Shown here: in pieces, positions 23,889-64,000 of the stretch | Position numbering within the stretch: the first letter of the stretch is position 1 | Layout: each line of letters begins with the position of its first letter | Source: a virus | Reading direction: 5' to 3' (one strand) | IMG/VR virus record: IMGVR_UViG_3300047160_006395 | Span: 39,398-103,397 of that record | DNA length: 64,000 nt | Made by a program: the position numbers and the translations under genes | Notes under the pieces: generated by a model | Databases searched by the model: none | What the model saw: only the letters and a program-made list of their open reading frames with translations | Told to the model about the DNA's origin: nothing

Positions 23889-23913
23889 CATGCTGATACG
23901 CAGCGTAACGGGG

Positions 23914-24690: not shown

Positions 24691-24721
24691 TGTATATGAC
24701 ACGTTTAAGCAGAAAAGTCAA
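24691..24721 (-). promoter_or_regulatory. putative promoter TTGACT-N15-GTCATATA
   Basis: shares the GTCATAYA box with three other cassette promoters; upstream of the HNH gene. Confidence 0.55.
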
Positions 24722-24733
24722 GAACGATCGTGG

Positions 24734-25678: not shown

Positions 25679-25734
25679 GTTTATCTCCTCCGTGAATGAA
25701 GGTTATCCTCGACGAACAGTTTGACGGTGGTCTC

Positions 25735-26361: not shown

Positions 26362-26405
26362 GTGGTTTATCCTTGCCTCCGTGAAGGTAGTGTGGTTTCC
26401 GTCCC

Positions 26406-26828: not shown

Positions 26829-26845
26829 GAATGTATCCTCCGTGA

Positions 26846-28165: not shown

Positions 28166-28208
28166 TCCTTTGACCGATGCGTCGCAGCCGTGCCCAAGTA
28201 TCTCTGAC

Positions 28209-29708: not shown

Positions 29709-29709
29709 G

Positions 29710-32422: not shown

Positions 32423-32423
32423 G

Positions 32424-33395
32424 TCAGTTCTTGGCCTCCATAGTGTCTCCGTTCAATGATGGGGCCGGGAATGCCAGCAGCTCCAACATACTTTGCGCGG
32501 GGATCTCCTGACCGGCCGATATCGCCATAACTTCTTCGTAGCGAAGCTCGGCCGACAAGTCATCGTATCGACCCAGCGGTGGTGCGTCCACATGCCCAAG
32601 CCGCCGGCCGACCGTGAACGGCAAGCTGATGAGCATGGTATGAACATTCTGCTTGAGCGCCTCGGTGGCAACCCCACCAGCACCACCGCCGCCAGTCCGC
32701 TCAAGCTCGACCAGCTTGAGGAATCGGTCGATGATCTCCACGGCGTTGAAGTTATTGATACGGAGCGTCTTCAAGGCCAGCATCGCGACGCGGCGCAGAT
32801 CGTTCTGAGCAACATCGGCAACGAAGTACTTCAGATCACTGGCGCGCTCCGGTACGGCATGGCCGATCGACTGATCAACCATCAGATCCACAGCCAGTGG
32901 TCCGCCCAGCACCGCGAACAGCTTCCAGATCAGATCGTACTCACTGGCCTGGAAGCCCAGATGGATCGCCGGACCCAAGACGCAGTGCATCAAATAGCCG
33001 CGATTGGTAAGACGCTCACGGACGTTGAAAAACAATCGCTCGTAGGCTTCGATGACAGCAACTTCAGTTGCTACGCGCCGGGCGATGTTGTCGAGCTGGT
33101 CATCGGCCACGAGACGGGCCTCGACTTCGCTTCGGACAGGGTTGCCGGCGTCGCCCTGTGTGTGCCAGATATCGTGGGCCCAGTAAAGCACAGGATGCTG
33201 TTCTGACAGAACGGCCAGATCCAGCTCATTGTTGCAGTTATCCTGTTCTTTGATGAACTGAGCCGCGCGAGCGATCCATCCATCGTTATCGCGGCGCCGC
33301 GATAGCGGGTACTCGCCACTGGCGGCCAGCGAGGCGCGCTGCCACCGCCAGTCAACTGGTCGCCGAGGATTCTTGGGAGAGTACGTGTGGATCAT
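32424..33395 (-). CDS. hypothetical protein
   Basis: 323 aa; globular composition; 1-bp gap to the next gene. Confidence 0.7.
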   Translation of the reverse strand: MIHTYSPKNPRRPVDWRWQRASLAASGEYPLSRRRDNDGWIARAAQFIKEQDNCNNELDLAVLSEQHPVLYWAHDIWHTQGDAGNPVRSEVEARLVADDQLDNIARRVATEVAVIEAYERLFFNVRERLTNRGYLMHCVLGPAIHLGFQASEYDLIWKLFAVLGGPLAVDLMVDQSIGHAVPERASDLKYFVADVAQNDLRRVAMLALKTLRINNFNAVEIIDRFLKLVELERTGGGGAGGVATEALKQNVHTMLISLPFTVGRRLGHVDAPPLGRYDDLSAELRYEEVMAISAGQEIPAQSMLELLAFPAPSLNGDTMEAKN

Positions 33396-33413
33396 GGTCC
33401 GTTACGCAGCGTA

Positions 33414-33899
33414 TCAACCGCGGTAGTGCTGGATCCCCATGAAGATGCCGAAGGTCTTGGTACCAGTACCGAGCACAGTCAGTTTCATGTACAGCTTTGG
33501 CTGGGCGCTGGACAAGCTGCCATCGCGGTTGATATAGGGAATGCCGATCTGCGAGTAGGTCCCATCACTACCATCGGCCAACTCGACACGATCATTATTC
33601 GATGCTGCCACCTTGGTTGGCATAATCTGATGCTGGGCCTCGATCGCCGCATTGACGGTGGGTTCGGTACTCGTTTGGGTCACCCCCGGTGGACAGGCGA
33701 CGGCTGCATCGTAGAACGTATAGGAGAAGCCAGACAATAAGTTATTGGACGTGATCAAGGTTCCGTCCGCGTTGAGCTGGATCACCGAGAACTTCATGAT
33801 CAAGCCCATCGCTGGTGCGCCGAGCATGACGCGGACGGTCTGGCCGCCCTGAACTGTCAGGGGAAATAGGTTTGTCCCTTGGGAACTAGTATCGGCCAT
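33414..33899 (-). CDS. hypothetical protein (beta-rich)
   Basis: 161 aa; GGAGG RBS; operon packing. Confidence 0.65.
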   Translation of the reverse strand: MADTSSQGTNLFPLTVQGGQTVRVMLGAPAMGLIMKFSVIQLNADGTLITSNNLLSGFSYTFYDAAVACPPGVTQTSTEPTVNAAIEAQHQIMPTKVAASNNDRVELADGSDGTYSQIGIPYINRDGSLSSAQPKLYMKLTVLGTGTKTFGIFMGIQHYRG

Positions 33900-33907
33900 T
33901 GGGCCTC

Positions 33908-37777: not shown

Positions 37778-39772
37778 TCATACCGTCGAACCGCCATGCC
37801 AGATACCAGTCCGCACGCTAGCTGGCGTTTTGGGATGGAACTTGGGCATGTCGTCGTCGGCCATATTATCATCATCGTCGTCCCATGTATCCCCCCCAGG
37901 GTCCCAACCTTGAGTCAAGCCTTGCCGGCCGAAATGCGTGCGTTCAGCTAGGGCAGGAACGTAACTGGTACTGGCGATATCACTACTAGCACCCCGATGA
38001 GCCGCCTGCAAGGTAGCCTTCTCCAAACCTGAACCCAGATGTCGGGTCATCCAGTCAGGATCATGCTGAAGATTGTACATGCCCCGGACCATCGTTGGCT
38101 CGAACGGCGGCGGGGTGTCATGAACTTCCAGGTTGTTGACCCCGAATTCTTTGAGTTCGGGAATCATGCCCGGTCGGATCTTGGTACCGATACTGTGATG
38201 CAACACCGGGCGCTCAAGGTATTTACCCAGGGCCGACGACAAGCCAACCACTTTTGATCCAGGCCGCGGGGTCCAGTTCTTCTCGACGGTCGAGTACGGC
38301 ACGATGTCATCTTCAACATGATCACCGAACTCATCAGTAACCCGGACATGGTCGATCAGGCCCCGGGAGAGTAGCTCGACGTTTCGTCGGTGACTGCCCA
38401 TTCCTGAGCCCTTGAAGGCATCGCCGAATGCTTTGACGAAGTATCGGCGGCCCTCGCCGATGCCTTTGTGCTGGACCATCTCGGCGGGGTTGGGGATGCC
38501 GCCCGAAATAACATCGCCGGCCTCGACACTGTCGCCAACCTTGACGGTTGGATCAAGGCCATGCGGAACGTAGTGCTGCTGAGCACCGACCGAAACGTAC
38601 TTACCACCCTGGGGAGCGTCGGCGATTGTTGTGATCTTGCCGTCAATCTGGGCGTGGGTAGCTCCGCCTTTGAAGGTCTTGGGTACCTGGATCAGTTGGT
38701 TGATATGAGCGAATCCGGAGACTGCCTTGTCAGCGCCGGCGACGCCGCCGGTATGCCGGGCCGAAAGCTGGCCTTGCGAGAGCTTCTCAGACAGGGCCTG
38801 AGTTGCGGCCAGACCAACATAGTCGCCCAAGGGCGCCAGGCCACCACGTTCACGCACTCCGACATCTCGAGCATAGACACCGCCCTGCGGTGGTCCGCCG
38901 ATCATCGGTGATCGAACCAGGATGCGATTGAGCCCTTTGGTCTGGAGATCCTTGAGGATCTTGGGGGTCAGGACCGTGTTCCGCTTGTAGGGCCCGGCAG
39001 GATGGGCCAGCAAAGCTCCTTCGTTGTCAGGATCATCAGCCGTCGTTGGCAGCCCGCGGATCGATGACCTGTCTTCTTCCTCGGCATCATGGCCGGTAAC
39101 GACCAAGCGGTGACTGATCTGGTTGAGCTGCTTGGCCAGGAAGCCGGCTTCCTGGGTCGAGAACTTGGTGGCGGCAACACCCTTGCGAGCACCAAATGCA
39201 CTGGCCCAGTATTCGACTGGTGAAAGACCATGCGGGTAAGCGTGAAGGATCGGAACCGGGATCGGATTGTCATGATGATCAGCGTACATCAGGTCAGAGC
39301 CCAGGAGCGACTTCACGCTCAGCTTGCTACCTCGAGCGCCTGAGAGCACCTGATAAGCGAGTGGATTGCCGGCCTTCTTGGCCTCCTCGAAGACCGTGTC
39401 TTCCATCTCCTTGGTTCGCTCATGCAGTGCGGCAGTGATCGCATGCGCCTTTCGCTCATCGTCCATCCGGGTATCGGCCTGGATCATCTGGATGTGGCGG
39501 CGAAGCTGTTCCTTGATGCGCTCGCCAGCTGGGCTGGGCCGCAGATCTTCCAGGGAGGCAGAGTAACCACCTGTGGCATAGGCTGCATCACGGCCGACAT
39601 CGGAGAGCCGCTTGGCAATATCGCGGTACTTATCGGGATGTTTCTCGGCAATCTCCTGGAACAGCTTCTTGATGCCGCCGCCATCGAGAACGCGGGTATG
39701 GTCCCGCAACTCTTCAGGAAGAGCTTCGTTTATAGCCAGTTGCCCCAGCGTCGTTCTCAGCATCCGTGCCAC
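37778..39772 (-). CDS. rpoC: DNA-directed RNA polymerase beta' subunit, C-terminal part
   Basis: SGARGS; bridge helix EYW.SAFGARKG..ATK..T.EAG.L; trigger loop ATQALSEKLSQ..L...HTGG; HRRNVELL; the start may be ATG 39763. Confidence 0.9.
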   Translation of the reverse strand: MARMLRTTLGQLAINEALPEELRDHTRVLDGGGIKKLFQEIAEKHPDKYRDIAKRLSDVGRDAAYATGGYSASLEDLRPSPAGERIKEQLRRHIQMIQADTRMDDERKAHAITAALHERTKEMEDTVFEEAKKAGNPLAYQVLSGARGSKLSVKSLLGSDLMYADHHDNPIPVPILHAYPHGLSPVEYWASAFGARKGVAATKFSTQEAGFLAKQLNQISHRLVVTGHDAEEEDRSSIRGLPTTADDPDNEGALLAHPAGPYKRNTVLTPKILKDLQTKGLNRILVRSPMIGGPPQGGVYARDVGVRERGGLAPLGDYVGLAATQALSEKLSQGQLSARHTGGVAGADKAVSGFAHINQLIQVPKTFKGGATHAQIDGKITTIADAPQGGKYVSVGAQQHYVPHGLDPTVKVGDSVEAGDVISGGIPNPAEMVQHKGIGEGRRYFVKAFGDAFKGSGMGSHRRNVELLSRGLIDHVRVTDEFGDHVEDDIVPYSTVEKNWTPRPGSKVVGLSSALGKYLERPVLHHSIGTKIRPGMIPELKEFGVNNLEVHDTPPPFEPTMVRGMYNLQHDPDWMTRHLGSGLEKATLQAAHRGASSDIASTSYVPALAERTHFGRQGLTQGWDPGGDTWDDDDDNMADDDMPKFHPKTPASVRTGIWHGGSTV

Positions 39773-43704: not shown

Positions 43705-46700
43705 TCAGCGATCCGCCACGATCTCGACCGGCTGATCGACGTTGATCTCGCCGCGACGATAAGCAGCCAGAGCATCGGCCTTGGTGGCAAAGACCCGCGG
43801 CCGCTTGTTGGATCGTGTGGATGACGCTGCATACAAACCAGCCGCATATTCTCTGGATGGTAATTGATGTGCCTTAAAAGAGCTAGTGCTCATTAGGTTG
43901 CGAGAAGGCAGCATCTTCTCGTAGGCGTCCCTGACCGCCTCGTCGGTGACCGGAACGTGGTACTGCATGGCATCGCCATCGAAGTCAGCACCGAAGCCGG
44001 TTACGATCATCGGCGAAACGTGCAGGGTCTCACCTTGCTCCAACCGGGGCCGGAAAGCCATGATCCCATACCGGTGATGCACCGGGGCCCGGTTGATGAT
44101 CACCGGCCGGGCATCCATCTCGGTCACCATGGCCTCGCGGGCCACCGGCTGGCGGTCTCTGACGGCCCGTACGGCGTCGATGCGGTTCATGCCACGTCGA
44201 ACCAGCCGGCGAACGATGAAAGGCTGGTAGACGTCCCAGGCCCTGTTCTCGGGCAAACCAACCTGGTCCATGTCGAGATCCGGGTTGGGCACGATCGTCG
44301 CTCGGCCGACCAGATCGGTCGCACTGGCCAGCAGCTTGCGCTGGACCATGCCCGTCTTGGGGCTGTTGCCAAAGATCTGCTTGAGCACGCCCCGAACGCC
44401 CCGCTCGCGATTCTTGGGATGCAGCGGATCACCCAGCCCGGTGACTGCCTTGAGGGCGCCGTAGTGGGCAGCCCGCTCTTCCGAGATGTCGCTAACCCGG
44501 CCCGACATGTCTTTGAGATTATCCCGGGCTTCGATAAGTTCCTTGTAGAGATAGTTGGCATCGGCAACCATGGGCAGCTTGCTGCCGGCCATTGTTGATA
44601 CGGGCCGGAAAACGGGCGGCAGCACTGGCGCCCGATCGAGCATCCAGTCACGAGGATGCAGCCCATGCTTCTGGGCTGTCTTCAGAAAGCCGAGCTTGCG
44701 CACGGCTGCGTCCCGCGCTCCCTTGCGACCAGAACGAATGTCAGCACGGGCTTCGTCGATCGCCTTGTCGATGTCAATCTTGTCCAGCGCCTTGGCGATG
44801 GCGTCAGGCCCGGTACGGCCGTTGAGCTGCTCCTTGCCGGTCATGACATCCATGAACTTATTCTGGGTTAGGCCCAGCATCCGGCGGATCGGCTCTTCCA
44901 TGACAGGATTGGGCAGCGGCTCGGCCAGCCTGATCGCCGACCATCTGTTACCGCCGTGTCCGCCCGTCAGCGCCTCATCGAATAGCCCGCCCTTGAGCGG
45001 CTTGAGCCCGGTCTTCCAGTCCACTGTATCGCCGTGTGCGATCTCGCGGTCGCCAGCCAGCTCGTTGACGTCGTTGTTCGATAGAGCCATGACATTCAGC
45101 TTGGTGCCCTTGCGAACCACGTTGATGCCGCCGGCCTTGAGCAGGTTCTGGAACTTGTCATAGATCATGGGCGTCTTGGGCGTCGGCATCGGCTGGCCCG
45201 CCATGAACTGCTGCCAGAATTCAGGGTGCGCCTGACCCCGGACGGCGCCGGCATCACGAAGCACCTCGGTGGCGCCATGTGATAGCAGGGCGTTGATGTC
45301 CATCAGGGAGATCCGCTTCGAGCCAGCTTCACCGCCACGGGCAGGAGCGCCTTCCGCAGTATATCCGCCCGTGCCACGGCCCTGGCCCTTCGACTCGCTG
45401 GTATGGTGCAGCTTCATGAACCAGCGGTTGCCAGTGAGGATGCGGGGGATGTCCCGGTTGGCAACTGGATCGTGGATCGTCTCGGCCGACTTCATACCGT
45501 TCTTGGTCAGTTCCTGGATGACCCACTCGGTATAGTTCCGGTCGTTGACAAAGTCAGGAACACGGTAGGGCTTGCCCGTCTTTTCAGCGATCTTGCCCAG
45601 AGCGGCTTCCATCTTCTGGGCCGGGTTCGCTCGAGTGATGATACCCAGCGGGTTCACGAGCACCTCGAAGGGCCGGCCCTGGCTATCGTGCGGCATCTTG
45701 TGATCCGGGACGATGGCCGCGACGACGCCTTTGTCGCCGTAACGCCCGGACATCTTGTCGCCAACCTCCATCGGGTTCAGGCTCTTGACTGAGACGACGA
45801 TGCCCTTGGCTGTCTTCTCGACATCGGTGACTTCACCCGGAGCGTGATGGTTCCAGGTCTCTGAATGATCGGCCCAGGATGCCGAGCGGCCGCGACTGAT
45901 GGCGCCGTGAGTTCGCTCTCGTTCCTTGACGGCCAGGATCAGCGGATCGCCGTGGTTGACGATCGTGCCCGGCTTGACCACACCCTCGTGGTCGATCGTG
46001 CTGAGCATGTTGCGGTCATACTTGCCAGGAAAGATCGAAACATGAGCGTGCTTGCCAGCCTTTATCCCTTCCTCCATGTCGAGCGAGTGCTGGTACATGT
46101 GCTCCGAAGACAACCGCTTGGCCATCGACTCGCTGATGACGGTCGCATCCTCGAAGTTGAGCCCGTGGTACGGGATGTAGGCTACGCGGGCATTCTGGCC
46201 CAAAGCAGCGACGCCCTTCTCATCGGTATAGTTGGACCGGGCCAGTAGATCACCAGGAGCAACCTTGTCTCCTACTCCGACTACAGGAGTCTGGTGTATA
46301 TAGGTCTTCCGGTTGTAGGGATAGTTCACGTATAGTTCGTGCGTGTGTACTTTCCCGTCGCTGCCCCGGATCTTGATGACCCCGTTGGCTTTGTCCACTG
46401 CCGTCACGGTGCCGCCGGTATCACTGTGCAGAGCACCCATGTAACGACCGTAGCGGGCTTCGTAGCTGTCGGTGTCGCTGCCCCTGACGCCAGCCTGCAC
46501 CAGTGGGGACTGTGGATCTTTCAGCGGCAGGGCCTGAGTGATCATACGGCCGGCCATGACCGCGCGCTGGGCCTTGCCGGTCGACTTGGCCGGAACCAGG
46601 TTGCCGATGGCGCTGAAGGCGTCGTCCATCGAGGGTAGTTCGTACTGTACCTGCGACCTCGGTACTTCGCGGATCTTGCCAGCAACCAGCGCCGAGACGT

Positions 46701-49224
46701 ATGGCTTGCTCGAGCGCAGCTCGCCCGGGAAAGAGATCGTTGCATCGGCCAGGTCCTGGGCACTACGGTACTCACGCTTTCCAGTCTTCACATTATGGAA
46801 TGGTGCGTAGAGCCGGCCATCATCGCCCTTCATCGTCGCCTGGGCTACCCGGCTATCGACGCCCACGTGGAGACTTTCAGGAGTAACCACTGGATCGATC
46901 AACCCGAAGTGCGACGGCTGGACGTTGCGACTTTCACTCGGGATCGCATCGAGCGAGTTGCCACACCAACAGGTCTTGCCATTACGACGGATGAAGAGCA
47001 GGCCGCCCGGAACCGAAGCACAATAGACCTTGCCGGTATAGTTGATCTCCTGATATTGATCGCACTTCTTTTGCCGCACCACCAACGCCTCATCGGCGGT
47101 ACGGATCATGACTTGGTATTGCGGCCGCTCGTCGGCTTTATACCGTGTCCTATAGGTTACGGCATAACCCAGCGTGATCGCCAGAAACCCGACCTGTTCG
47201 GCGAGCTGGCGCGAGGCGGATGCGTAGAGGCGTCGCGTCGGCAAGAAGCCACTATTATCCATCGTGGTGATCACATCGAAGAACCGGCGGCGCGATGCCG
47301 GCGATGCAGTCATAACATAGTCAGGCACGAACTTGGCGGCGGCCGTACCGAATTGACGCAAGTAATATGCCAGATGTTTACCTGAGATCTTGAACCGCCG
47401 ATCTTGCTCATAGTGATGAGTGAAGCCGAGGCGCATCAGCAAGTCGGCGATGAACCCGGCTTCGACCGGGTTTCGCGATCGCCGCTTATTGAGTTCAACA
47501 CGATAGTCACCCCGTCGATAAATGCTGTTACCATCAGCCAGGTAACACGCGAGAAATTCCAGCCAGTCATCGAATGGGACTGCGATCGGCGTTCTAACCG
47601 CTGTCCCACAGTTCTGGCCATCGGCCGGTGCCGGCTGGATCATAAAAACGGCCGGCGACTCTCCAAATGTTGCTTGTGCAGCCGCGATCTTGTGTCTCGC
47701 CCGTTTGCCATGGACCTGGTGCGCAGCCACAAACTCGAAGGGACGATCCATAGGCTCACGACCAACCGTTGTTGTCGGTCGCGAAACGTAGAGCCGGTGG
47801 TCAGGGGTCACGAGATAGTCGATACGATCAGTAACGCCGCGAAGCATCGGTCCAGCGTAGTCAGTGACGTGGAGTGACTCCGCCCGCGCAAAGAAAAGTC
47901 GACCATCATCGGTACGACAGGCGAAATTGTCGTCGAGTGTTACTGTGGGCCACGGCTTCCAACCCGCTGCGGTGAGAACCTCGGTATCACTGGAGTAACA
48001 CGGGATGCCGCCCATCCCGAGCCGACTGATCCTGGCTTGCTGATCGAAGATCATCGCAGGGTTGATACCTTCAGTCGGCTGCCCTAGCCCGCTGGACATG
48101 ATCGCCGCGTTGATCCCTCGAGTAAGCAGGTCGGGTTGAACGTGCTTCAGCCCTTCGGTCATGGACGCTTTCCAAAGGGTCTTGCCCAGGAGCATGCGAT
48201 CTTTGCCGACCCGTTCAGCCAGCAGGTCTTCAGGCCCCATCGCCGTCATGTAAGCCAGGTGGTCACGATCATCAGGCTCGGCTTCACCCTTGTTGATCGC
48301 CATCAGCTTCTTGGTGGTATCGAGCATCTGATCCAGGGAGACACGATCGTATGGCTTGCCCAGGGTTCGCTTGGTCACCTCGGGGTCGAGCCCCATCTGC
48401 TCGAACGATTCACGAACTTCTTGTTCTGGTGCCTTGTTCGGGTCGGGCTTGCGGACCATACGGTCATGCAGCTTACCGATGACCGATGGATCGTCCTTGA
48501 GCATGTTGGGCTGATAGAGATCGCCCCAGGCTTCCTGGAGCTGCTTATCACTGGCGCCCATGGCCCGAAGCACACCCGTCAGCGGCATCTTCGACTGACC
48601 CACCTTGAGCCGGAAGACGCCTGTCTCGGGCTCCATGAAAATACGGTGTGCCATGCCTTTGCCTGGCATCACGTTGACGTGGGCTTCCAGCTCGCCGTTA
48701 GACTGGATACGGGTATAGACGCCAGGCCGGAGCCGGAGCTGATGCGATAGGGTGTACTCGGTGCCGTTGTTGATGAACGTGCCGTGATCGGTCAGGTAAG
48801 GCACCGTAGCGACAGTGGATCGCTTCTTGTCGATGATCTTGCCAGTCTCGTTCTCTTTCAGCACCCAGGTGCCACGGAGTCTGGTCCCCAGACTGCGGCC
48901 ACCCAGGATAGCTTTTTTCCAGTCAGAGATTCCATGCTGAACAGCGCCTTCGTACCCGACATCTTCGAGAGTCAGGGTGTGCCGCTGATTGGTGACCGGT
49001 GGGATCTTGGAAGCTGCTTCCCGAACTCGATCTTGAATTCGGGCCCGGATCGCCGCCGAGTCGCCAAATGGCCGGAGGCCCGCCGGCGCATGGAGAGGCA
49101 TGGCCGGCGAGCGCGGAACGGGACGCTCTTTCGGTGTCCCATCGTGGATCTGCCCGTCACCATCACCGTCACGTGGAATGCCATGTAACGACCCAAGTGC
49201 AGACTGTGAAAGTACACTGGGCAT
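43705..49224 (-). CDS. rpoB: RNA polymerase beta subunit fused to the N-terminal half of beta' (catalytic), intein-containing
   Basis: beta motifs FINNG.E...QL, SHFGLIDP..TPE, GDKMSGRYGDKGVV, KLHH; beta' motifs PVLPP.FRP, NRAP..H, GADFDGD. Confidence 0.92.
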   Translation of the reverse strand: MPSVLSQSALGSLHGIPRDGDGDGQIHDGTPKERPVPRSPAMPLHAPAGLRPFGDSAAIRARIQDRVREAASKIPPVTNQRHTLTLEDVGYEGAVQHGISDWKKAILGGRSLGTRLRGTWVLKENETGKIIDKKRSTVATVPYLTDHGTFINNGTEYTLSHQLRLRPGVYTRIQSNGELEAHVNVMPGKGMAHRIFMEPETGVFRLKVGQSKMPLTGVLRAMGASDKQLQEAWGDLYQPNMLKDDPSVIGKLHDRMVRKPDPNKAPEQEVRESFEQMGLDPEVTKRTLGKPYDRVSLDQMLDTTKKLMAINKGEAEPDDRDHLAYMTAMGPEDLLAERVGKDRMLLGKTLWKASMTEGLKHVQPDLLTRGINAAIMSSGLGQPTEGINPAMIFDQQARISRLGMGGIPCYSSDTEVLTAAGWKPWPTVTLDDNFACRTDDGRLFFARAESLHVTDYAGPMLRGVTDRIDYLVTPDHRLYVSRPTTTVGREPMDRPFEFVAAHQVHGKRARHKIAAAQATFGESPAVFMIQPAPADGQNCGTAVRTPIAVPFDDWLEFLACYLADGNSIYRRGDYRVELNKRRSRNPVEAGFIADLLMRLGFTHHYEQDRRFKISGKHLAYYLRQFGTAAAKFVPDYVMTASPASRRRFFDVITTMDNSGFLPTRRLYASASRQLAEQVGFLAITLGYAVTYRTRYKADERPQYQVMIRTADEALVVRQKKCDQYQEINYTGKVYCASVPGGLLFIRRNGKTCWCGNSLDAIPSESRNVQPSHFGLIDPVVTPESLHVGVDSRVAQATMKGDDGRLYAPFHNVKTGKREYRSAQDLADATISFPGELRSSKPYVSALVAGKIREVPRSQVQYELPSMDDAFSAIGNLVPAKSTGKAQRAVMAGRMITQALPLKDPQSPLVQAGVRGSDTDSYEARYGRYMGALHSDTGGTVTAVDKANGVIKIRGSDGKVHTHELYVNYPYNRKTYIHQTPVVGVGDKVAPGDLLARSNYTDEKGVAALGQNARVAYIPYHGLNFEDATVISESMAKRLSSEHMYQHSLDMEEGIKAGKHAHVSIFPGKYDRNMLSTIDHEGVVKPGTIVNHGDPLILAVKERERTHGAISRGRSASWADHSETWNHHAPGEVTDVEKTAKGIVVSVKSLNPMEVGDKMSGRYGDKGVVAAIVPDHKMPHDSQGRPFEVLVNPLGIITRANPAQKMEAALGKIAEKTGKPYRVPDFVNDRNYTEWVIQELTKNGMKSAETIHDPVANRDIPRILTGNRWFMKLHHTSESKGQGRGTGGYTAEGAPARGGEAGSKRISLMDINALLSHGATEVLRDAGAVRGQAHPEFWQQFMAGQPMPTPKTPMIYDKFQNLLKAGGINVVRKGTKLNVMALSNNDVNELAGDREIAHGDTVDWKTGLKPLKGGLFDEALTGGHGGNRWSAIRLAEPLPNPVMEEPIRRMLGLTQNKFMDVMTGKEQLNGRTGPDAIAKALDKIDIDKAIDEARADIRSGRKGARDAAVRKLGFLKTAQKHGLHPRDWMLDRAPVLPPVFRPVSTMAGSKLPMVADANYLYKELIEARDNLKDMSGRVSDISEERAAHYGALKAVTGLGDPLHPKNRERGVRGVLKQIFGNSPKTGMVQRKLLASATDLVGRATIVPNPDLDMDQVGLPENRAWDVYQPFIVRRLVRRGMNRIDAVRAVRDRQPVAREAMVTEMDARPVIINRAPVHHRYGIMAFRPRLEQGETLHVSPMIVTGFGADFDGDAMQYHVPVTDEAVRDAYEKMLPSRNLMSTSSFKAHQLPSREYAAGLYAASSTRSNKRPRVFATKADALAAYRRGEINVDQPVEIVADR
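46957..48000 (-). mobile_element. intein (348 aa) with a LAGLIDADG-type endonuclease in RNAP beta
   Basis: GIP|CYSSDTEVLT...VTPDH...FLACYLADG...VYCASV...CWCGN|S. Confidence 0.88.
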
Positions 49225-57169: not shown

Positions 57170-58564
57170 TCAGCTGTACAGTGCGTTCGCCACGCCCGAG
57201 ATCAGCCCACCCCACATGCCATAACTCTGGAGCTTCTGTTGTGCTTCCGGTTTCAGTCCGGCCAAGGCGCCCAGCGTTTTGCCCACCGCAAGGCCCGTGA
57301 GCCAGCCCTTACCAGCACCCAATGCCGCAGCCGTCCCAACCTGCCACGGACTCAACACATCTGTCTGGGCCGCCTGCGAGGCACCAGACAGCAGCCCGCT
57401 GACGGCAGCCGCTGCATACGGCGGCGTGCCCATAGGCTGCTGGTTATTACCCCAGGGGCTCTTGGTACCAAAGGCGTTAGGTGGATTGCGCACGTCATTC
57501 CAGACGACCTGGTTGAATGCGTCGACCGGGATGGATTGAGTGAACATGGCACCAGTACCGGCGTAGTCCTGAGCTGCCTTACGAAACCACGGATGGACCC
57601 CGGCAAGTTTGGTCCCGTTTGCATCGAGCGGCGAGTTAGTACCGGGAGGCTCACGGCCCGGTTCTTCTTGCGATAGACTCGGCGGCGGCCATGGTAGGGT
57701 AGTGGGTTGGAAAGGCGGCAGCGATGGCCTGGGCGGCTCACCGGTCGATCCTGGCGGCAGGTTCCGGCCCCGCCACTCAGCCGTTGCGCGCCATAGCCCA
57801 GGCGCTGCACCCAGGGCGGCACCACCTAGCCCCAGGGTCCAGGGCAATCGTCCCTTGTTGACGGCTTCATCGGGCAAGAACTGGTCGGCGATCCAGCCGG
57901 CGCCATAACCCAGACCGCCGCCGATCAAGCTGTTGACGATTGCCGAGGTCAACCCGCTCGGGCCACCGATCGCCGTTTGAATGGCACGATGGGGCTTCGC
58001 AATCGGTTCCAGGTAGCCATCTGCTGCTTTGACGAGCACCCAACCTTCCACCGGCGGCGGTGGAATCGGTTCGATGAACAAGGCCATATTGGGCACGCCG
58101 GGGACGTCGGGAAGGCGCTCCCAATCAGCGCGTTTCTCAATGTCGGCCACTTCAGCCCACGCTGTCGAGGTGCCACCGTGCCACCAGAGTCGGTCTTCCG
58201 GGCCGGCGGCTCGATCCGCCCAGGCGGCGAGACGGCATGCCATTGGGGCGGCTTGCTTGTAAAGAGCAACAACCATAATGGGTACGCGTCGCCAACATTC
58301 GAGATCATAGCCATCAACAATCTCCCCGAGTTGGTCTTCGAGTCGGGCCATCTTGAGCCCCTGCCGCCGGTTGAACTCGGCTATCGCTTCATTCATGCGC
58401 TGCCCTTGCGTTCGCCACCTATCGCGTGAATCGACCTTGTAGGCAGCCCGGCCCAGATTCTGACCGATATTCGAGAGCAAACCCTGCTTCGGATCGTAAG
58501 TAGGCTCCTCGGCAAGAACATTCAGAAATGGCCTCTTGACAGGCGAGAACATCGTGTCGTTCAT
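57170..58564 (-). CDS. putative internal virion protein, K-x-A segmented, with Gly zippers
   Basis: 464 aa; KMA, KQA, KRA, KAA, KLA, KAA; several GGGLGYGAG-type segments. Confidence 0.65.
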   Translation of the reverse strand: MNDTMFSPVKRPFLNVLAEEPTYDPKQGLLSNIGQNLGRAAYKVDSRDRWRTQGQRMNEAIAEFNRRQGLKMARLEDQLGEIVDGYDLECWRRVPIMVVALYKQAAPMACRLAAWADRAAGPEDRLWWHGGTSTAWAEVADIEKRADWERLPDVPGVPNMALFIEPIPPPPVEGWVLVKAADGYLEPIAKPHRAIQTAIGGPSGLTSAIVNSLIGGGLGYGAGWIADQFLPDEAVNKGRLPWTLGLGGAALGAAPGLWRATAEWRGRNLPPGSTGEPPRPSLPPFQPTTLPWPPPSLSQEEPGREPPGTNSPLDANGTKLAGVHPWFRKAAQDYAGTGAMFTQSIPVDAFNQVVWNDVRNPPNAFGTKSPWGNNQQPMGTPPYAAAAVSGLLSGASQAAQTDVLSPWQVGTAAALGAGKGWLTGLAVGKTLGALAGLKPEAQQKLQSYGMWGGLISGVANALYS

Positions 58565-58567
58565 TGG

Positions 58568-61500
58568 TCAACCAAAGAGGTGCCACGGGCGCTTGTAGCC
58601 AGGTGACCCTACCCTGCGAAGGACTTCCCGGAACTGCTCGTTGAGTTCTTCCTTGCGCTGCGACTGACGCTCGAGTACTTCGTCAGCAGACGGTCGAGGC
58701 TTGGCGCCGAACATGCTACTGAGCCAGCCCGGCGGCGGCATCTTGGCAACGTATCGCTGTATCCTCACATTGCGTAGCTCGGGCGGCAAGCCCTCATGGC
58801 TGTCATACCGTAACCCGCGGCCCCTGGCCTGACCCAGACGAGCTTCGTTCCAGTGCGGATCGAGCAGCTGAATGAGTTGCGTACCCTTGGCTGAAATACC
58901 TTCGGCGCCAGCCGGCCCGATCAAGAGCACGCGCCGTTTGCCAGCGTTATACTCATCCAGCATCTGCTTGCGCTGCTCATCGGGCATCTCACCGTGGAAC
59001 TGGCCGTAGGGAATTCCCTCGTGTTCGAGCGCCGCCGCGTAAGGCGTCAGCCCGGCGTCGATGAAGTTCGAGTAGACCAGCGCCTTGGCCTGCGGGTTAC
59101 TGGCCAGGGTCTGCTTGAGATTGCCCATGGCAGACTGGAGTTTGGCCGATGTCTGGAAAGCGCGCATCGGATCTTTGGACGAGTGGTACGGGTAAAGCGA
59201 TAAGGCAGCCTGTCGCGGTCCAGTCATGAAGGCTGATAGATGACCCAATTCCTGCTTGGTGAGCGGGTAGTCGTTGGACAGCTTCCAGCGCATCAGCCAG
59301 GGCATCTTGCCCCACATCAGCTTGTAGAAGTCTTGCTGCTCCGGGCTCAGGTTGACTTCTACTCGTTCATCGTTGGTCTTGACCCCTTCAGGCGAACGTG
59401 ATGCCTGGTAGTCAACGTGCCCCTCGAGCAATCGCTCGAGGTCATCTTCGTTCTGGAGCGATGGCACCTTGACCGACTTGACACCCTGGAGCCAACCCAT
59501 CCAGCCAGGACTGACTGTCGTGCTGCCGACGAACTTCTGATTGAAGGCAGCAGGAGTCATTTCCTTGCCAGTAAGGATTGACAAAGGTACAGCCAGATCA
59601 CTGGGCTGATTGACAATCGGCGTGCCTGAGAGCAAGACCCGATGCGGAGCTGTCATAGCCAGATTCATCGCGGCGCGGGCGCCAGCCGACTCCGGGTTGC
59701 GGATGCGCTGGGCCTCGTCAAGTATAATGGTATTAGGTATGTGTTGAGGTTGCTTACCCATTCCAACCCCAGTATATGAAAGAATATCCGGAGCCGAACC
59801 TGGATCCCATCGCCCAACTTCTTTACGGAAGTTTTCCCGCAGCGATGCTGGAGTGATCGCCGCGTAAGGGCCGCCAATGGCTTTAGCCGCTTCGATCGCA
59901 CTCCGAGTTTTTCCAGAACCGAGGCCGTGATAGACAAGAAGCCCATCACCGTGCGCTACTCGTCCGGCAACTCGGCGTTGGTAGGGCTGCATCTCGACGT
60001 TGAGTTGCGCGAGCTTACTCCTAAGATCTGTTCGATCGGCCAACCACGTTGATGTCGCATGTATAGAGTGAGATAGGCAACTTGCAGCTTTTCTGCCCAG
60101 TCCTTGAGCGAAAGAGTCTCGCCCTGATGCGTCAGAATGATATTGTTTTTGCGGCTGTAACGCCTGTCCAGACTGCCGGACGGACATGACAATACATCCG
60201 CTATCGCCATCCCTTTCTTGATCCTCGCTTTGATCATGGTCGGCGACACGCCCAGCCGTCTTGCCCATTGCCTGATGTTCAGCCGCAGCCCATCGTGTTC
60301 CAGGAACTTGGCCGCCTTGTTCTCCGTCCCGGGCGGCACGGTGAGCGCCTGTTTGACCGACCAACCCGCATTGAGCCGACCCCGCAACGTCATGCTGGCA
60401 ATGCCCGTCTCTTCCGCCCACGCGTCGAGCAGCTGCGTCTTTCCGTTGAACGTGATCCTGCGGCAGTAACGCCGGTTCTTGGCTTGTTGCGCCCGCGACG
60501 CCCAAATGCAGTTGCCCGGGAAGTAACCCTTGTCGTTGTCCTTCCGCTCGATCGTCAGTCCGGGTGGGCATTCGCCCATATCGGCCAAGAAGTTCTCGAA
60601 CTTCAGCCAGCGCCGGCAGACCTTGATCCCCCGACCGCCATAGTCCCCGTACTTCTGGTTTTTCGGGTTCTCGCACCGTTGCAGCATGGTGCCCCAACTG
60701 CGATACGTCCGTGAACCGCTCTGCCCGTGTGTCCTGGCCATTTGCGCCTCTCGTGTGAACTTCGTTGTTCCTTTCATTATACGAGAGGTCCGGGGAAGTG
60801 AAAGATGCCGCCTTGGTGAGCCGGCTTCCGACCACCTTGCGCGGGGCGTGGATCCGGAAGTTGGTCCCGATGTGGGTCAGGCCCACGATGCCGTCCTCGG
60901 CCGAGTCCTGGATGAACTCATTAGGGCGTTCGCTGAGCAGCTTCGCGAGGATCGCGTGCTTGGCCGAGTAATTCTTTCTATCCGACTCGGCCTTAGCACG
61001 TTTCAGGTCGGCCAAAATGGGATGGGGCGCAGCGGCTTTCTCACTCCAGACATGACCGCACCGGTTGCACTTGCCAGTACGGGGATCTTGCTCGAGCCGG
61101 GCTCCGCATTTCGGGCAGCATTCGCCAGGCGGACAAGACTCAATCCTCATGCTGCGCGCCAACTTGTTTAGACCTTCGGCCGCCCCGGTTGTCGGGATCA
61201 TGCCGGCTCCATCCTGCGGGCCTGTCGTGGGCAGCTTGCTCACCCATGCCGGCGGCGCAGGCTTGCGCTGCTTGTCCTCGGCGATCAGATCGTCAGTGCT
61301 CTCGCCCACGTTGGGGCTGCGCTCCGGAATGCCGTCGACTGCCGATGCCTCATTACCAAAACCAGCGAGGCTGGCCAACTTGGCAATCGGATGTGTCTTG
61401 AGCGCCTTGAGTGCGGCGATACGCCCTGTATAGAAAGGCTTGGATTCATCCTCGGGTTTGTACTGACGAATTCGCCTGATCGCTGTGTCGAGATGCCGTA

Positions 61501-64000
61501 GCTTGACCTGCGTGAGGCCGCTAGGCTCACTGAGTGAAGGCGGCACGTACGGATCATCGGTTAGCCGGCCTGCTGTGAAGAAAGTGCGCGTGCCACGATA
61601 GGTCTTGGACCGCTCGGCCTGTTGTGGCGTCCTGTACGGCGGCTTCCATTCGTGGAGCACTGGCGGCACGGGCAGCAACACAGGGTCAGCCACAGTCCGG
61701 CCTGACTCTTCAAAGAACTCACGCGCTCCTGCGGCAGCTGGATCTTCACCAGGATCGATACCGCCGCCAAAGACGCCATGGGTCCGATCTTTATCATAGA
61801 TCCCGCCATAGACCTTGCCACCGCTCATGGCGTACATCTCGGCCCGGTCACGATAGGGCTTTTCATCCGCGGTCTTCAGCCCGGCAGGTTGCACCAGGCC
61901 GATAAGCTCGCCCAGCCGTATAACCGACCCTGATAGATCATCCCATCCCAGCACTCCCCGACTTCGGGGTAATAAGTTCTCATGTACTGTGGGATGCGCC
62001 ATGCCACTCTTGGTTGCGGGTTCGCCGTTGTGGCCTGGATGATACAGGTTGCTCTGGTCGCTACTTGCAACGTGTCGATCGTCATGGCTGGCTACCTTGG
62101 TGGAGATGTTCCATTGCGGCCTTTGAATGACTTCGGCGATACTGCCTCTGAGTCCGAAAAGCCGCGAGATAGTCTGGTAATGATCGTGTCGAACGGCACC
62201 TTGTTTCGTTCTGCCCAAACCGAAACTGGCAGTGCCAGCCCATCGACGGTTAATATCCGGTTGTTCCGTCTGTTCCTTGCTTGTGCGGACCTGGTTGCCC
62301 AGTAGCAGTTGTCCTTGCAATATGGGCCTTTGTTGTCCCGCCGTTCGATAGTCAGACTTGCTGGTGGTAGCCCCATGTCCCTGAAGAAGACTGTGAAGTC
62401 CCGCCACTCCGGACAAACCGTTATGCCTCGACCACCCCACTTTGGATAGTCCTTGTGGCCTTTGTCTGTGCACCGCTGGATCATGCTGTGCCATACCGCA
62501 TAAACCGGCGTCTTCGACATGCCGTGTGTCTGGAGCTGTGCTCGCTTCTGCTCGCTTCGCAGACAACCGCACGACTGAGTTCTGCCCTTCGTCTTTGCAG
62601 TTAGTCGCGAACTTCTGATGTCCTTCACTTTTCCGCAGACACAGCGGCAGGTCCACCAGCTGTTCCGGTTCGGCGGTCTGTTCGGCGCGCGAACGATCAC
62701 TTCCAACCTTCCGAAATGGTCCCCCGGGCTTATTTGGGTAGTCTTCATGGAGCCCTATGAATGAAGGCACACGCAGCGCGCCGCTGGGAAGCTGCTGTTG
62801 TGTTTTGACTCTTGCGACCCGCCCGATATAGGCCGATGGATCACGGGCAATATCCTCGAGAGTCGCATCAGAGAAGCCAGTTCCGATCTTGCCAACCGTT
62901 GGCCCACCTGCCGTGCGCGCGTATGTGAGGCCACCGACAGTACCACGCCTTTTCCCTTCACCTGGGAATGTACCCGTGATAAAAGCATCAACATCTTCCA
63001 TGAGCTTGGCCTTCGATGGTACTCCATGTCGAGGCCAAAAAACAGCTCCCTCCTGAGTTAGTGGGTGCGCGCCCCCACGAACCATGTTCCAGAGCTTGGT
63101 TGCAGCTTCAGAGCCATGATGCTCCTCGGAAAGGTGGAACTTATCCTGGGGCAGGTGAGCCAGGATCTCCTCGAGCATCCGCCGCCGCTCGGCCCGCGGC
63201 GTGACGGACGGATCGATCGGCTTCTTACCATACTGCTGGACGTCGTAGAGCATGTTGCGCAGGGTCAATCCACGCTCTTTCTGGAGCTGGAGGCTGCGCG
63301 CAATGCTGGAGTTGAGTAGAGTCCCAACGTCCTGGGGTCCAAGTCTAGCTCTGCCCGCAGCACCGCCAGATGCAGCATCAGCATCGCTTGTTTGCGGCTC
63401 AGCTTCGGCTCTTCCTCCAGGGCCAGCTGCCATACCCGCAGCACTGCCATTTGTTCCGCGACCCGTCCTTGCAGCATACATCTCACCTTTCAGGATTGAT
63501 CCCTCAAGGTGCTTGGGCACTGGTATCTCAGGCCGGCCACCGAAGAAGCGCTCAGTGTGGAAGATCGGCCGGCCCGTCATCTTTGACGTCCTGAAACTTA
63601 ACATCTCGGCATGGTTCTTGGCCAGCTGCACCAGCTGGCTGGCACCATCGACCTTGGCCTCGACGGTATCACCTTCCTGCATCTTCTGGAGATGGGGCTC
63701 GATAGCTTCGGGAGGGATCTTCTTGTAGTGGACCTTCCCGTAAGGCACTGGATCCCGTGGCGTGGTATTCATCAAGAGCCAGTTCTTGTTGCCCCAGCCC
63801 TTGGGCCTGGCCAGTACGAAGCGCTCTGGGTGTCTCTGGTGAGCTGTCGTGAAATGGACCGATTCCGGCGTGGCTTTGGTAATCAGGACCTGGCCTTCTT
63901 CATGCTTCTTCACCCGGCCGGCGCCATAACCGGATGGGATCACGCCCTCGAAGTCCTTGTACCCGTGGCGATGCACAGGCTGCTGCACAGCCAGGTGCTT
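58568..64000 (-). CDS. polyprotein (5'-truncated): LigD-type 3'-phosphoesterase, ATP-dependent DNA ligase, NUDIX hydrolase, Zn finger, SNF2-family helicase
   Basis: KHLAVQQPVH...FEG.IP.GYGAG (PE); EAKVDG, GEMY, YDV, EGAV, GTGFSD (ligase); GGIDPGED...AREFFEESG (NUDIX); GLGSGKT, LDEAQ, LSGTP, QARGR (SNF2); frame is open past the window edge. Confidence 0.85.
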   Translation of the reverse strand, partial: KHLAVQQPVHRHGYKDFEGVIPSGYGAGRVKKHEEGQVLITKATPESVHFTTAHQRHPERFVLARPKGWGNKNWLLMNTTPRDPVPYGKVHYKKIPPEAIEPHLQKMQEGDTVEAKVDGASQLVQLAKNHAEMLSFRTSKMTGRPIFHTERFFGGRPEIPVPKHLEGSILKGEMYAARTGRGTNGSAAGMAAGPGGRAEAEPQTSDADAASGGAAGRARLGPQDVGTLLNSSIARSLQLQKERGLTLRNMLYDVQQYGKKPIDPSVTPRAERRRMLEEILAHLPQDKFHLSEEHHGSEAATKLWNMVRGGAHPLTQEGAVFWPRHGVPSKAKLMEDVDAFITGTFPGEGKRRGTVGGLTYARTAGGPTVGKIGTGFSDATLEDIARDPSAYIGRVARVKTQQQLPSGALRVPSFIGLHEDYPNKPGGPFRKVGSDRSRAEQTAEPEQLVDLPLCLRKSEGHQKFATNCKDEGQNSVVRLSAKRAEASTAPDTRHVEDAGLCGMAQHDPAVHRQRPQGLSKVGWSRHNGLSGVAGLHSLLQGHGATTSKSDYRTAGQQRPILQGQLLLGNQVRTSKEQTEQPDINRRWAGTASFGLGRTKQGAVRHDHYQTISRLFGLRGSIAEVIQRPQWNISTKVASHDDRHVASSDQSNLYHPGHNGEPATKSGMAHPTVHENLLPRSRGVLGWDDLSGSVIRLGELIGLVQPAGLKTADEKPYRDRAEMYAMSGGKVYGGIYDKDRTHGVFGGGIDPGEDPAAAGAREFFEESGRTVADPVLLPVPPVLHEWKPPYRTPQQAERSKTYRGTRTFFTAGRLTDDPYVPPSLSEPSGLTQVKLRHLDTAIRRIRQYKPEDESKPFYTGRIAALKALKTHPIAKLASLAGFGNEASAVDGIPERSPNVGESTDDLIAEDKQRKPAPPAWVSKLPTTGPQDGAGMIPTTGAAEGLNKLARSMRIESCPPGECCPKCGARLEQDPRTGKCNRCGHVWSEKAAAPHPILADLKRAKAESDRKNYSAKHAILAKLLSERPNEFIQDSAEDGIVGLTHIGTNFRIHAPRKVVGSRLTKAASFTSPDLSYNERNNEVHTRGANGQDTRAERFTDVSQLGHHAATVREPEKPEVRGLWRSGDQGLPALAEVRELLGRYGRMPTRTDDRAEGQRQGLLPGQLHLGVAGATSQEPALLPQDHVQRKDAAARRVGGRDGHCQHDVAGSAQCGLVGQTGAHRAARDGEQGGQVPGTRWAAAEHQAMGKTAGRVADHDQSEDQERDGDSGCIVMSVRQSGQALQPQKQYHSDASGRDSFAQGLGRKAASCLSHSIHATSTWLADRTDLRSKLAQLNVEMQPYQRRVAGRVAHGDGLLVYHGLGSGKTRSAIEAAKAIGGPYAAITPASLRENFRKEVGRWDPGSAPDILSYTGVGMGKQPQHIPNTIILDEAQRIRNPESAGARAAMNLAMTAPHRVLLSGTPIVNQPSDLAVPLSILTGKEMTPAAFNQKFVGSTTVSPGWMGWLQGVKSVKVPSLQNEDDLERLLEGHVDYQASRSPEGVKTNDERVEVNLSPEQQDFYKLMWGKMPWLMRWKLSNDYPLTKQELGHLSAFMTGPRQAALSLYPYHSSKDPMRAFQTSAKLQSAMGNLKQTLASNPQAKALVYSNFIDAGLTPYAAALEHEGIPYGQFHGEMPDEQRKQMLDEYNAGKRRVLLIGPAGAEGISAKGTQLIQLLDPHWNEARLGQARGRGLRYDSHEGLPPELRNVRIQRYVAKMPPPGWLSSMFGAKPRPSADEVLERQSQRKEELNEQFREVLRRVGSPGYKRPWHLFG
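59956..60741 (-). CDS. nested +1-frame HNH-family endonuclease (YGGRGI type) with repeated C-terminal DNA-binding modules
   Basis: THGQS...W..MLQRC.NP....Y.DYGGRGIKVC..W..FENFLADMG..P...TIERKDND.GY.PGNC.WA; ATG 60741 with GAGG RBS. Confidence 0.85.
   Translation of the reverse strand: MARTHGQSGSRTYRSWGTMLQRCENPKNQKYGDYGGRGIKVCRRWLKFENFLADMGECPPGLTIERKDNDKGYFPGNCIWASRAQQAKNRRYCRRITFNGKTQLLDAWAEETGIASMTLRGRLNAGWSVKQALTVPPGTENKAAKFLEHDGLRLNIRQWARRLGVSPTMIKARIKKGMAIADVLSCPSGSLDRRYSRKNNIILTHQGETLSLKDWAEKLQVAYLTLYMRHQRGWPIEQILGVSSRNSTSRCSPTNAELPDE
60776..60803 (-). promoter_or_regulatory. putative internal sigma70-like promoter of the nested HNH gene
   Basis: perfect TATAAT at 60776-60781; TTCACT/TTTCAC 15-16 nt upstream; located inside the polyprotein coding frame. 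Confidence 0.5.
61876..62085 (-). CDS. nested +1-frame small ORF (69 aa)
   Basis: starts 6 nt after the HNH stop with an AAGGT RBS; its stop overlaps the Lys codon of the KTA site before NUDIX. Confidence 0.5.
   Translation of the reverse strand: MTIDTLQVATRATCIIQATTANPQPRVAWRIPQYMRTYYPEVGECWDGMIYQGRLYGWASLSAWCNLPG
62092..62748 (-). CDS. nested +1-frame HNH-family endonuclease
   Basis: G.HFGRLEVI...W.CRC.CG...SCGC...THGMS...W.SM.QRC....WGGRGITVC.EW..F..F..DMG...TIERRDN..Y.KDNC.WAT. Confidence 0.88.
   Translation of the reverse strand: MKTTQISPGDHFGRLEVIVRAPNRPPNRNSWWTCRCVCGKVKDIRSSRLTAKTKGRTQSCGCLRSEQKRAQLQTHGMSKTPVYAVWHSMIQRCTDKGHKDYPKWGGRGITVCPEWRDFTVFFRDMGLPPASLTIERRDNKGPYCKDNCYWATRSAQARNRRNNRILTVDGLALPVSVWAERNKVPFDTIITRLSRGFSDSEAVSPKSFKGRNGTSPPR
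63265..63477 (-). CDS. nested +1-frame small Leu-rich ORF (70 aa) inside the ligase
   Basis: AAAGGTGA RBS 5 nt before ATG 63477; coincides with a ~40-aa low-complexity insertion in the ligase frame. Confidence 0.45.
   Translation of the reverse strand: MLQGRVAEQMAVLRVWQLALEEEPKLSRKQAMLMLHLAVLRAELDLDPRTLGLYSTPALRAASSSRKSVD

Follow-up and report, generated by a model that had tools for sequence, protein, structure and literature searches.

HNH-like nuclease genes nested at module junctions of a putative phage polyvalent protein gene, and the open host frame across them

How can a phage gene hold two other genes inside its own coding sequence and still be read from one end to the other? This question is raised by the final 64 kb of a 103-kb virus contig that represents approximately 50% of a genome by the CheckV estimate (IMG/VR record IMGVR_UViG_3300047160_006395, positions 39,398 to 103,397; this whole stretch of 64,000 nt is referred to below as the window). 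One minus-strand open reading frame (ORF) at 58568-64000, encoding the protein P0001, is open throughout its 1810 codons and truncated on its 5' side where the contig stops, and it encloses two intact HNH-family ORFs, HNH-A and HNH-B, both in the +1 frame relative to the host frame. A preliminary description of the window had noted this nesting inside an uninterrupted frame of more than 1800 residues and had proposed that homing endonuclease genes (HEGs) colonise linkers of a virion polyprotein, keep the host frame open and let the capsid maturation protease discard the resulting junk. The reading we arrive at is that mobile HNH-like cassettes sit at module junctions and would be read through unspliced, with the host frame kept open; we give it a probability of roughly 0.78 from sequence comparisons. 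Whether the added peptide is removed by proteolysis is a separate and more tentative matter, which we treat after the evidence for the cassettes themselves.

Two nuclease genes between modules of one protein

Both nested ORFs match PHROG 374/3377, annotated as HNH endonuclease, with E values of 1e-62 to 1e-67. Searches with Pfam and PHROGs placed in P0001 a LigD 3'-phosphoesterase (PE) fragment and an ATP-dependent ligase in residues 1-420, a NUDIX domain at approximately residues 712-870, a Zn ribbon followed by a small helical module at 954-1065, and an SNF2 helicase at 1332-1810. The inserts had been placed directly after the ligase (site A) and between the small module and the helicase (site B), and these placements are correct (Table 1). 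Many unrelated conflict and DNA-repair domains, including 2H-SAK, InPase and LPD domains, which belong to the description of polyvalent proteins in passages of Iyer et al. 2017 (PMC5512222), are found in the window ORF together with its orthologues, and by this domain content P0001 is classed as a phage polyvalent protein in the sense of that paper.

Relatives of the host gene were taken from IMG/VR and from a search of 5.8 billion proteins, and alignment with them revealed insert-free alleles at both sites, with junctions that are exact to the codon. At site A the empty allele reads LHED-IN-KVASH, and at site B, in L003 and L002, KAA is followed directly by DLLPWV. Of the close orthologues, 5 have an insert at site A and 6 lack one, with L002/P0008 and P0009-P0012 among the empty alleles, and the pre-helicase site is filled in three close orthologues. 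The insert sizes given in the preliminary description had to be revised in part, since insert A comprises 214 codons followed by a window-specific spacer of about 71 codons and not 290 codons, and insert B comprises 266 codons, with approximately 263 in the preliminary description. Across the 642 and 798 nt of the two inserts the host frame contains 0 stops, and it resumes in register after both of them, as had been described.

The nuclease ORFs reach into the host sequence on either side. HNH-A spans both junctions of its insert, and its ATG is formed from the host codons CAT GAA (H-E of LHED), the empty allele having CAC instead, while its TAG stop falls within the K-V-A codons of the host (AAG GTA GCC), where the empty allele has GTG. 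HNH-B likewise covers both junctions of insert B, and its final 17 codons overlap the helicase module. Its longest ORF, 59956-60777, encodes 273 amino acids, with a better Shine-Dalgarno sequence in front of the ATG at 60741. Among the sequences compared, no homologue of the 61877-62089 spacer was found in either reading. A 69-codon ORF (61876-62085) goes on in the nuclease frame after the HNH-A stop, through this host-frame spacer. In P0015 and P0016, Arg/Gly/His-rich, junk-like stretches follow K-V-A at site A (LHED-INKVA and MHED-YNKIPKVAS); they do not match the host-frame translation of the HNH cassettes and could represent overprinting by a different element family.

Phage group I introns often carry HNH genes, and the present nuclease family is found within true inteins elsewhere. 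One alternative is that the inserts are introns of the self-splicing type (group I or II), or protein-splicing elements of an unrecognised type, and leave before the protein acts. A cmscan of positions 58000-64000 against Rfam gave no intron match at E values up to 10, the nuclease ORFs fill the inserts and overlap both junctions, leaving no room for a ribozyme, and an intron would not require an open exon frame. The Pfam scan of P0001 showed no Hint or intein domain, and the insert ends (Y...T and S...A) lack the C/S start and HN end of an intein; L003, L034 and L043 by contrast show clear inteins of the form C...HN followed by C or S. The absence of intein motifs and of room for a group I core, already pointed out in the preliminary description, is thereby borne out, and we give splicing of either kind next to no weight: on these sequence features an intron appears very unlikely and an intein excluded. 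A hammerhead candidate (HH9) at 63240-63310 on the minus strand scored 23.6 bits (E 0.019), below the gathering score of 52, and lies inside the ligase coding region, and was rejected as probably a chance match.

Table 1 Features of the nested locus and of comparable loci (window positions unless a contig handle is given).
Feature	Position	Strand	Basis or remarks
Host gene, putative polyvalent protein ORF	58568..64000	-	ORF call, Pfam, orthologues of 1293-3084 aa
LigD 3'-phosphoesterase and ATP-dependent ligase module, last residues L-H-E-D	62741..64000	-	Pfam and PHROG
HNH-A gene, 218 aa, +1 frame	62092..62748	-	PHROG, empty-allele alignment, AlphaFold
Insert A, 642 nt = 214 codons, in place of the two codons I-N of the empty allele LHED-IN-KVASH	62099..62740	-	Codon alignment with L002
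Window-specific host-frame spacer, ~71 codons, holding in-frame ATG 62002-62000	61877..62089	-	
K-T-A junction (61868-61876), then NUDIX module	61391..61876	-	Pfam NUDIX
Zn-ribbon module, then small helical module (ADLKRAKAESDRKNY...) closing in T-K-A-A	60806..61141	-	BLAST segments to L002 and L003, breaks at K-x-A
HNH-B gene, +1 frame, likely start ATG 60741 behind GAGAGG	59956..60777	-	PHROG, Tiff81 gp70 homology
Insert B, 798 nt = 266 codons, from after ...TKAA to the helicase module, closing in S-K-L-A	60008..60805	-	Codon alignment with L003 and L002
SNF2 helicase module and stop codon	58568..60007	-	Pfam, PHROG, homologues
HNH-like gene at +1 in intein	L034:1815-4247 and L043:813-3950		G+C 47% and 60%; hosts: one SNF2-like helicase, one DNA polymerase
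DUF559/Vsr-like ORF, 222 aa, +1	L003:7336-8004		Inside helicase intein (~L003:7090-8010; C...HN followed by S)

Selection on the host frame and spread of the nuclease family

An open frame across a nested gene could arise by chance, and this was examined by shuffling. Permuting synonymous codons within the nuclease genes kept the host frame open in 0.04% of 5000 trials for A and in 0% for B, the mean being 6-7 stops; resampling codons with the phage's own usage kept it open in 0/5000, with 12-14 stops on average. The other forward frame across the nested genes contains 9-10 stops. Three more nested ORFs gave alike results, namely the site A cassette of L003, a cassette at a third site in L002 (after the 2H domain) and the Vsr-like ORF in the L003 helicase intein, across which the intein frame has 0 stops compared with 7-11 expected; over all five nested ORFs, between 0 and 2 of the 5000 shuffles for each gene kept the frame open. 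The host-equivalent frame was also inspected in 80 homologues on unrelated viral contigs, where it averages 15 stops, and homologues with a G+C of at least 0.55 have 1-11. It is stop-free in only two of the 80, both of which are nested at +1 in inteins (Table 1). It is clear from these results that a host frame open by chance is rejected.

What is selected can be read from cassette A, whose copies in the window and in L003 share 77% DNA identity. In the nuclease frame the dN/dS ratio (omega) is 0.12 with a dS of 1.11, while omega is 1.56 in the host frame and 1.89 in the unused frame. The flanking modules of the same two phages give a dS of 1.5 and an omega of 0.10 for the ligase, and 1.2 and 0.07 for the helicase. 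The nuclease is thus under purifying selection as strong as that on the host modules, and since the dS of the cassette is near that of its flanks, its age is roughly that of the divergence between the window and L003 phages. The low omega in the nuclease frame together with a value of about 1.6 in the host frame shows that the read-through peptide is unconstrained except for the ban on stops, so that only openness is selected. The earlier characterisation of the insert translation as unconserved junk agrees with this.

The constant +1 position has a simple explanation in the code. All seven nested genes verified at the DNA level lie at +1, a layout where the host frame reads nuclease codon positions 3-1'-2', and where a host stop (T|AA, T|AG or T|GA, the bar marking the nuclease codon boundary) requires a nuclease codon of the type NNT. 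This is the only overlapping frame where every stop can be erased by a synonymous NNT-to-NNC change, which provides a coding reason for nesting at +1; in the other overlapping frame, 0-3 stops per gene are beyond synonymous removal (those where Met precedes a codon whose first base has to be A). Within the nested genes none of the 372 codons standing before AA, AG or GA ends in T, compared with 219 of 1201 elsewhere.

Turning to the nuclease itself, an AlphaFold model of HNH-A based on a 59-sequence alignment (pLDDT 90.6) contains an N-terminal Cys4 module, a putative beta-beta-alpha core (strand 133-136, strand 148-151, helix 153-158) and a C-terminal helical module resembling DNA-binding ones. 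In the same alignment N147 is invariant and N159 nearly so. Foldseek gave no match of the model to the Protein Data Bank at E <=0.001, and a search of the nuclease-family profile against sequences of solved structures returned nothing credible. HNH-B is 45% identical to gp70 of Arthrobacter phage Tiff81, a gene located just upstream of the helicase gene gp71, and in a quick maximum-likelihood tree it is sister to a free-standing gene with 20 stops in the host-like frame (SH-aLRT 96). In this tree the nested state arose at least 2-3 times from free-standing genes. One free-standing homologue of the family, L093 from Staphylococcus phage vB_SauM-T-SE-E1 (OR640346.1, 27216-27854), is annotated as a dUTPase, which looks like a mis-annotation rather than a nested case. 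Elsewhere in the window, the C-terminal half of ORF 23914-24702, directly downstream of the head-protein candidate, matches another PHROG annotated as HNH endonuclease (phrog_2255, E 5e-9).

At least 14 cassettes were found, distributed over 10 or more polyvalent proteins, and all of them lie at borders between modules. The read-through ("shadow") peptides of different cassettes are 27-42% identical to each other, a resemblance that follows from the conservation of the nuclease frame, and BLAST with such shadows added cassettes in the close polyvalent orthologues P0007, P0013, P0015 and, with three of them, P0014; the cassettes of P0007 and P0013-P0015 are known from the host-frame peptide alone. 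A profile built from six shadows and searched against 1.84 billion representative proteins matched 925 proteins with E <=1e-3, 470 of them with E <=1e-10. Among 48 long top matches, 28 are family-A DNA polymerases (PolA) and 12 are SNF2 proteins, and their consensus shows classic intein blocks flanking the shadow. A rough division by regular expression gave 86 intein-like matches versus 41 without such features, and it undercounts inteins (P0126 and P0127 were missed). A minority of the matches are polyvalent proteins with neither an intein match nor an intein motif beside the shadow; of these, P0129 has two cassettes, and P0153 and P0238 have one each, located 10-19 residues after the InPase domain.

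Translation through the cassettes and the fate of the added peptide

Collectively, these data suggest the following course of events. P0001 would be a string of independent enzyme modules into which two mobile HNH-like homing-endonuclease cassettes have been inserted at junctions, one directly after the ligase end (LHED) and the other directly before the helicase module. Each cassette would bring a whole number of codons, with the nuclease at +1 and the host frame purged of stops, so that ribosomes on the host frame may pass straight through, adding an unconserved peptide of ~210-265 residues and then the next module in register, while the nuclease would be made separately via weak internal initiation. 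No splicing would be involved, neither at the RNA nor at the protein level. Continuity would be selected since the downstream modules must stay linked to the rest for synthesis and delivery. Cutting at K-x-A, for which we see somewhat less than an even chance, would release the downstream module and leave the junk as a tail or as a free peptide; otherwise the junk would persist as an inert spacer. A scan of the gene for minus-strand signals gave no terminator-like site, and promoter-like sites at or below chance.

A number of observations weigh against parts of this reading. HNH-A has no strong Shine-Dalgarno sequence upstream. In-frame starts precede both the NUDIX module (ATG 62002-62000 behind AAGAG, and GTGs as well) and the helicase module (ATG 59992-59990), so the preliminary statement that the NUDIX domain has no start codon of its own was inexact, and some independent initiation of the two modules is possible. 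As to the nuclease, no Pfam HNH model matches the nested proteins at E <0.01, and the best Protein Data Bank match of the HNH-A model is the HNH enzyme PacI (3m7k), with Z 6.2 and a root-mean-square deviation of 2.8 over 76 residues. R136 shows no variation in the alignment of 59 sequences and, judged by eye, takes the place of D-H in HNH_3, where the catalytic His is located. Judged by its sequence family the nuclease is HNH-like only.

Taken further, the in-frame starts could mean that the cassettes split the gene, with the ligase, the NUDIX-to-small-module part and the helicase made separately from ATG 62002 and ATG 59992, and the open frame incidental. In L006, a more distant relative, the ligase-bearing protein is a separate gene terminating in ...HEDI and a stop, and some homologues start a few residues ahead of the helicase module. 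Incidental openness is however rejected by the shuffles of the five nested ORFs, openness has been kept through a dS of ~1.1, free-standing homologues carry ~15 stops in that frame, and with no stop present translation of the ligase would still enter the insert. We regard such a split as very improbable.

Another possibility is that the nested genes are domesticated, as nucleases or DNA-binding proteins that serve the phage, for instance against competing phages. The strong purifying selection on the nuclease, the age of cassette A and the invariant Arg where a catalytic His is expected could all be understood in this way. Domestication fits less well with presence and absence varying at the same sites among close orthologues, with the use of several sites, and with a phylogeny that gives several origins from free-standing genes, as expected for mobile elements, and we consider it improbable.

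We turn now to the host protein and to the fate of the junk. The relatives of P0001 are giant proteins of 1293-3084 amino acids, several of them on contigs of 200-230 kb, and their modules comprise 2H-SAK, InPase, GNAT, LigD-PE/ligase, ParB-like, Zn ribbon, NUDIX and SNF2, and also LPD1 and LPD38. The ligase module is 72-80% identical to those of the L002 and L003 orthologues. Among the window, L002 and L003, the order of the ParB-like, Zn-ribbon, small helical and NUDIX modules varies despite 70-80% identity within modules, as if modules had been shuffled at K-x-A break-points between orthologues. No close relative of the host gene was detected among cultured phages by blastn and tblastn, where the best helicase matches are 31-32% identical; a metagenome scan with the ligase alignment yielded only one 2-kb contig, and a second viral scan with a 10-sequence helicase alignment gave no additional relatives. 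An AlphaFold model of host residues 330-870 (ligase OB, insert A, spacer and NUDIX; 18-row alignment) has a mean pLDDT of 42, with 30-40 in the insert and also below 50 in NUDIX, and therefore cannot tell junk from domain.

Passages of Iyer et al. 2017 (PMC5512222) predict that polyvalent proteins accompany the DNA and undergo processing into units. The polyvalent gene sits in a virion and RNA polymerase region of the window, and P0238 (2315 amino acids) has an N-terminal Portal_Mu domain (Mu-type portal, E 8e-30) followed by InPase, a cassette shadow and LPD1. By its domain architecture this fusion ties the polyvalent class physically to the capsid, and P0001 is probably carried in the virion. 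Elsewhere in the window we found a head-protein candidate (24734-25678), a tail-sheath-like protein and a multisubunit RNA polymerase, which is oddly split: a 1839-residue ORF (43705-49224) holds beta (Rpb2 domain 6) and then the beta' N-terminal domains (Rpb1 domain 2), and a separate 664-residue ORF (37778-39772) holds Rpb1 domain 5.

The preliminary description had bounded the junk by five K-x-A/G motifs, KVG (62702-62710), KVA (62090-62098), KTA (61868-61876), KAA (60806-60814) and KLA (60008-60016). All five are located correctly; the first of them is really the host-frame shadow of the conserved HNH N-terminus (FGRLEV) and not a host linker motif. The motif K-x-[AG] in total is not above expectation in the window, L002 and L003 proteins, while K-x-A alone is mildly so in the window ORF, with 15 instances compared with 8.9 expected (z 2.2). 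Its distribution is more telling. Nearly all points where homology starts or stops between orthologues coincide with K-x-A, and in 117 homologues the helicase module starts with K (113), any residue, A/S (116), [D/A/E] and L-L-P, with unconserved sequence upstream; in 12 of the 117 this motif lies within 40 residues of Met1, in several at only 3-12. The NUDIX modules of distant polyvalent proteins likewise start with K-[QT]-A, and K-x-A stands ahead of PE, ParB and Zn-ribbon modules, so that a conserved short motif of this type opens almost every module. In the first ten cassettes examined, all ten have the K-x-A of the next module downstream, and only about four have one directly upstream.

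K-x-A was further counted in every ORF of the contig and compared with shuffles of each protein. The motif is enriched with z 4-6 in ORFs 26846, 28209, 31031, 33908 and 23370, around the head-protein gene, and 3- to 5-fold (z 2.6-6.1) in ORFs 23370, 23914, 26406, 26846, 28209, 31031, 33908 and 57170, all of which fall in window positions 23370-36517 and 57170-58564. The motif occurs once near the N-terminus of the head protein and is absent from most tail and baseplate ORFs. ORF 23914-24702, mentioned above for its PHROG match, has 7 such motifs. The pattern looks like that expected of a recognition motif of a prohead protease, and proteolytic trimming appears plausible on these sequence patterns. 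For a proteolytic separation of modules from junk the chances seem to us appreciable, though short of even. It is rather doubtful whether cassettes specialise in K-x-A-bounded spacers of virion polyvalent proteins, with the phage maturation protease replacing splicing.

Proteolysis also has observations to contend with. Searches with PHROGs and Pfam among the genes near the head-protein gene recognised no prohead protease. At site A the ligase and the junk are not separated by any K-x-A, so that removal would be incomplete there and the junk would, after cutting, stay as a tail on the ligase. K-x-A could also be a structural N-cap or a microhomology used in module shuffling. It may then be that the frame is read through as we propose and the junk is never removed, remaining as an inert disordered spacer, as has been suggested for the ShiLan domain (PMC11855218), and that K-x-A is otherwise used, as an N-cap or recombination junction. 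The neutral evolution of the host-frame peptide and the lack of a recognised protease agree with this, as does the delivery of phage N4 vRNAP and some plasmid polyvalent proteins in unprocessed form, according to parts of PMC5512222. A purely structural role does not easily account for conservation in several unrelated modules starting at K-x-A, nor for the enrichment of the motif around the head-protein gene. We give permanent retention close to an even chance.

Relation to known out-of-frame insertions

The layout itself is not new. The preliminary description took it for a previously unknown third strategy for harmless insertion, besides introns and inteins, while unspliced read-through of a hidden HNH insertion was published in 2025 for phage methylases. 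What the present locus adds is the host class, the preference for junctions, multiple cassettes per gene, a quantified selection for openness, the coding rule for the frame and a plausible, still putative link to maturation proteolysis. Overprinting with read-through and without splicing is accordingly not a curiosity of two mycobacteriophage methylases, as it recurs at many polyvalent module junctions in an uncultivated jumbo-phage group, where the cassettes are held by measurable anti-stop selection through saturating synonymous divergence and where one simple coding rule explains the constant +1 nesting. The shadow-peptide profile offers a search tool, with hundreds of further cases, mostly in inteins, and for annotation it follows that genes can be concealed in the long low-complexity "linkers" of giant phage proteins. 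If the proteolytic part is true, a selfish gene would avoid doing harm within a coding region by depending on a protease of its host, and if K-x-A is a maturation-protease site, polyvalent proteins would be true polyproteins whose selfish inserts exploit proteolysis in place of splicing. A full-text literature search found no paper that puts such cassettes in polyvalent proteins or ties them to proteolysis, and the words "intein" and "homing" are absent from the text of Iyer et al. 2017 (PMC5512222).

The closest known systems are the hidden out-of-frame HNH insertions in mycobacteriophage DNA methylases (the ShiLan domain and Pacc40 gp60) described by Arsenault, Gosselin & Gogarten 2025 (Genes 16:178, PMC11855218), who propose retention without splicing for the ShiLan insertion. 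Here as there, an insertion that is in frame, free of stops and lacking in some orthologues is filled by an HNH-like ORF on the same strand but out of frame, intron and intein features are absent, and read-through is proposed. The host in our case is instead a multi-module polyvalent protein of an uncultivated jumbo phage, with up to three cassettes per gene located at K-x-A-marked module junctions and not in an internal loop of one enzyme; selection on openness has been quantified, and removal by a protease is a new possibility. Tiff81 gp70 is probably the Tiff81 gp75 of that paper (draft numbering), a free-standing gene compared there with the Pacc40 insert, and if so the nuclease family is common to the window and the Pacc40 insertion.

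Out-of-frame homing endonucleases are also known from inteins (Gosselin et al. 2025, bioRxiv 10.1101/2025.01.02.630785; cyanobacterial dnaX intein preprint, 10.64898/2026.09.14.751524). There too the endonuclease is overprinted on an open, unstructured host-frame stretch, and the same HNH-like family occurs in PolA and SNF2 inteins, but the junk leaves by protein splicing, whereas the window inserts are without a splicing domain. With the polyvalent proteins described in passages of Iyer et al. the host shares its giant size and its mixture of 2H, InPase, GNAT, LigD-PE/ligase, NUDIX, ParB-like and SNF2 domains.

Free-standing HEGs that split phage genes form a third point of comparison. Aeh1 nrdA with mobE and T4 genes 39/60 with mobA are reportedly of this kind, and Dassa et al. 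in 2009 are said to have described "fractured genes" with split inteins. Common to these and the present locus is a HEG of the free-standing type placed inside a coding region at a tolerated boundary; in those genes, however, the upstream frame ends and the halves are made separately, while in the window the frame stays open and in register.

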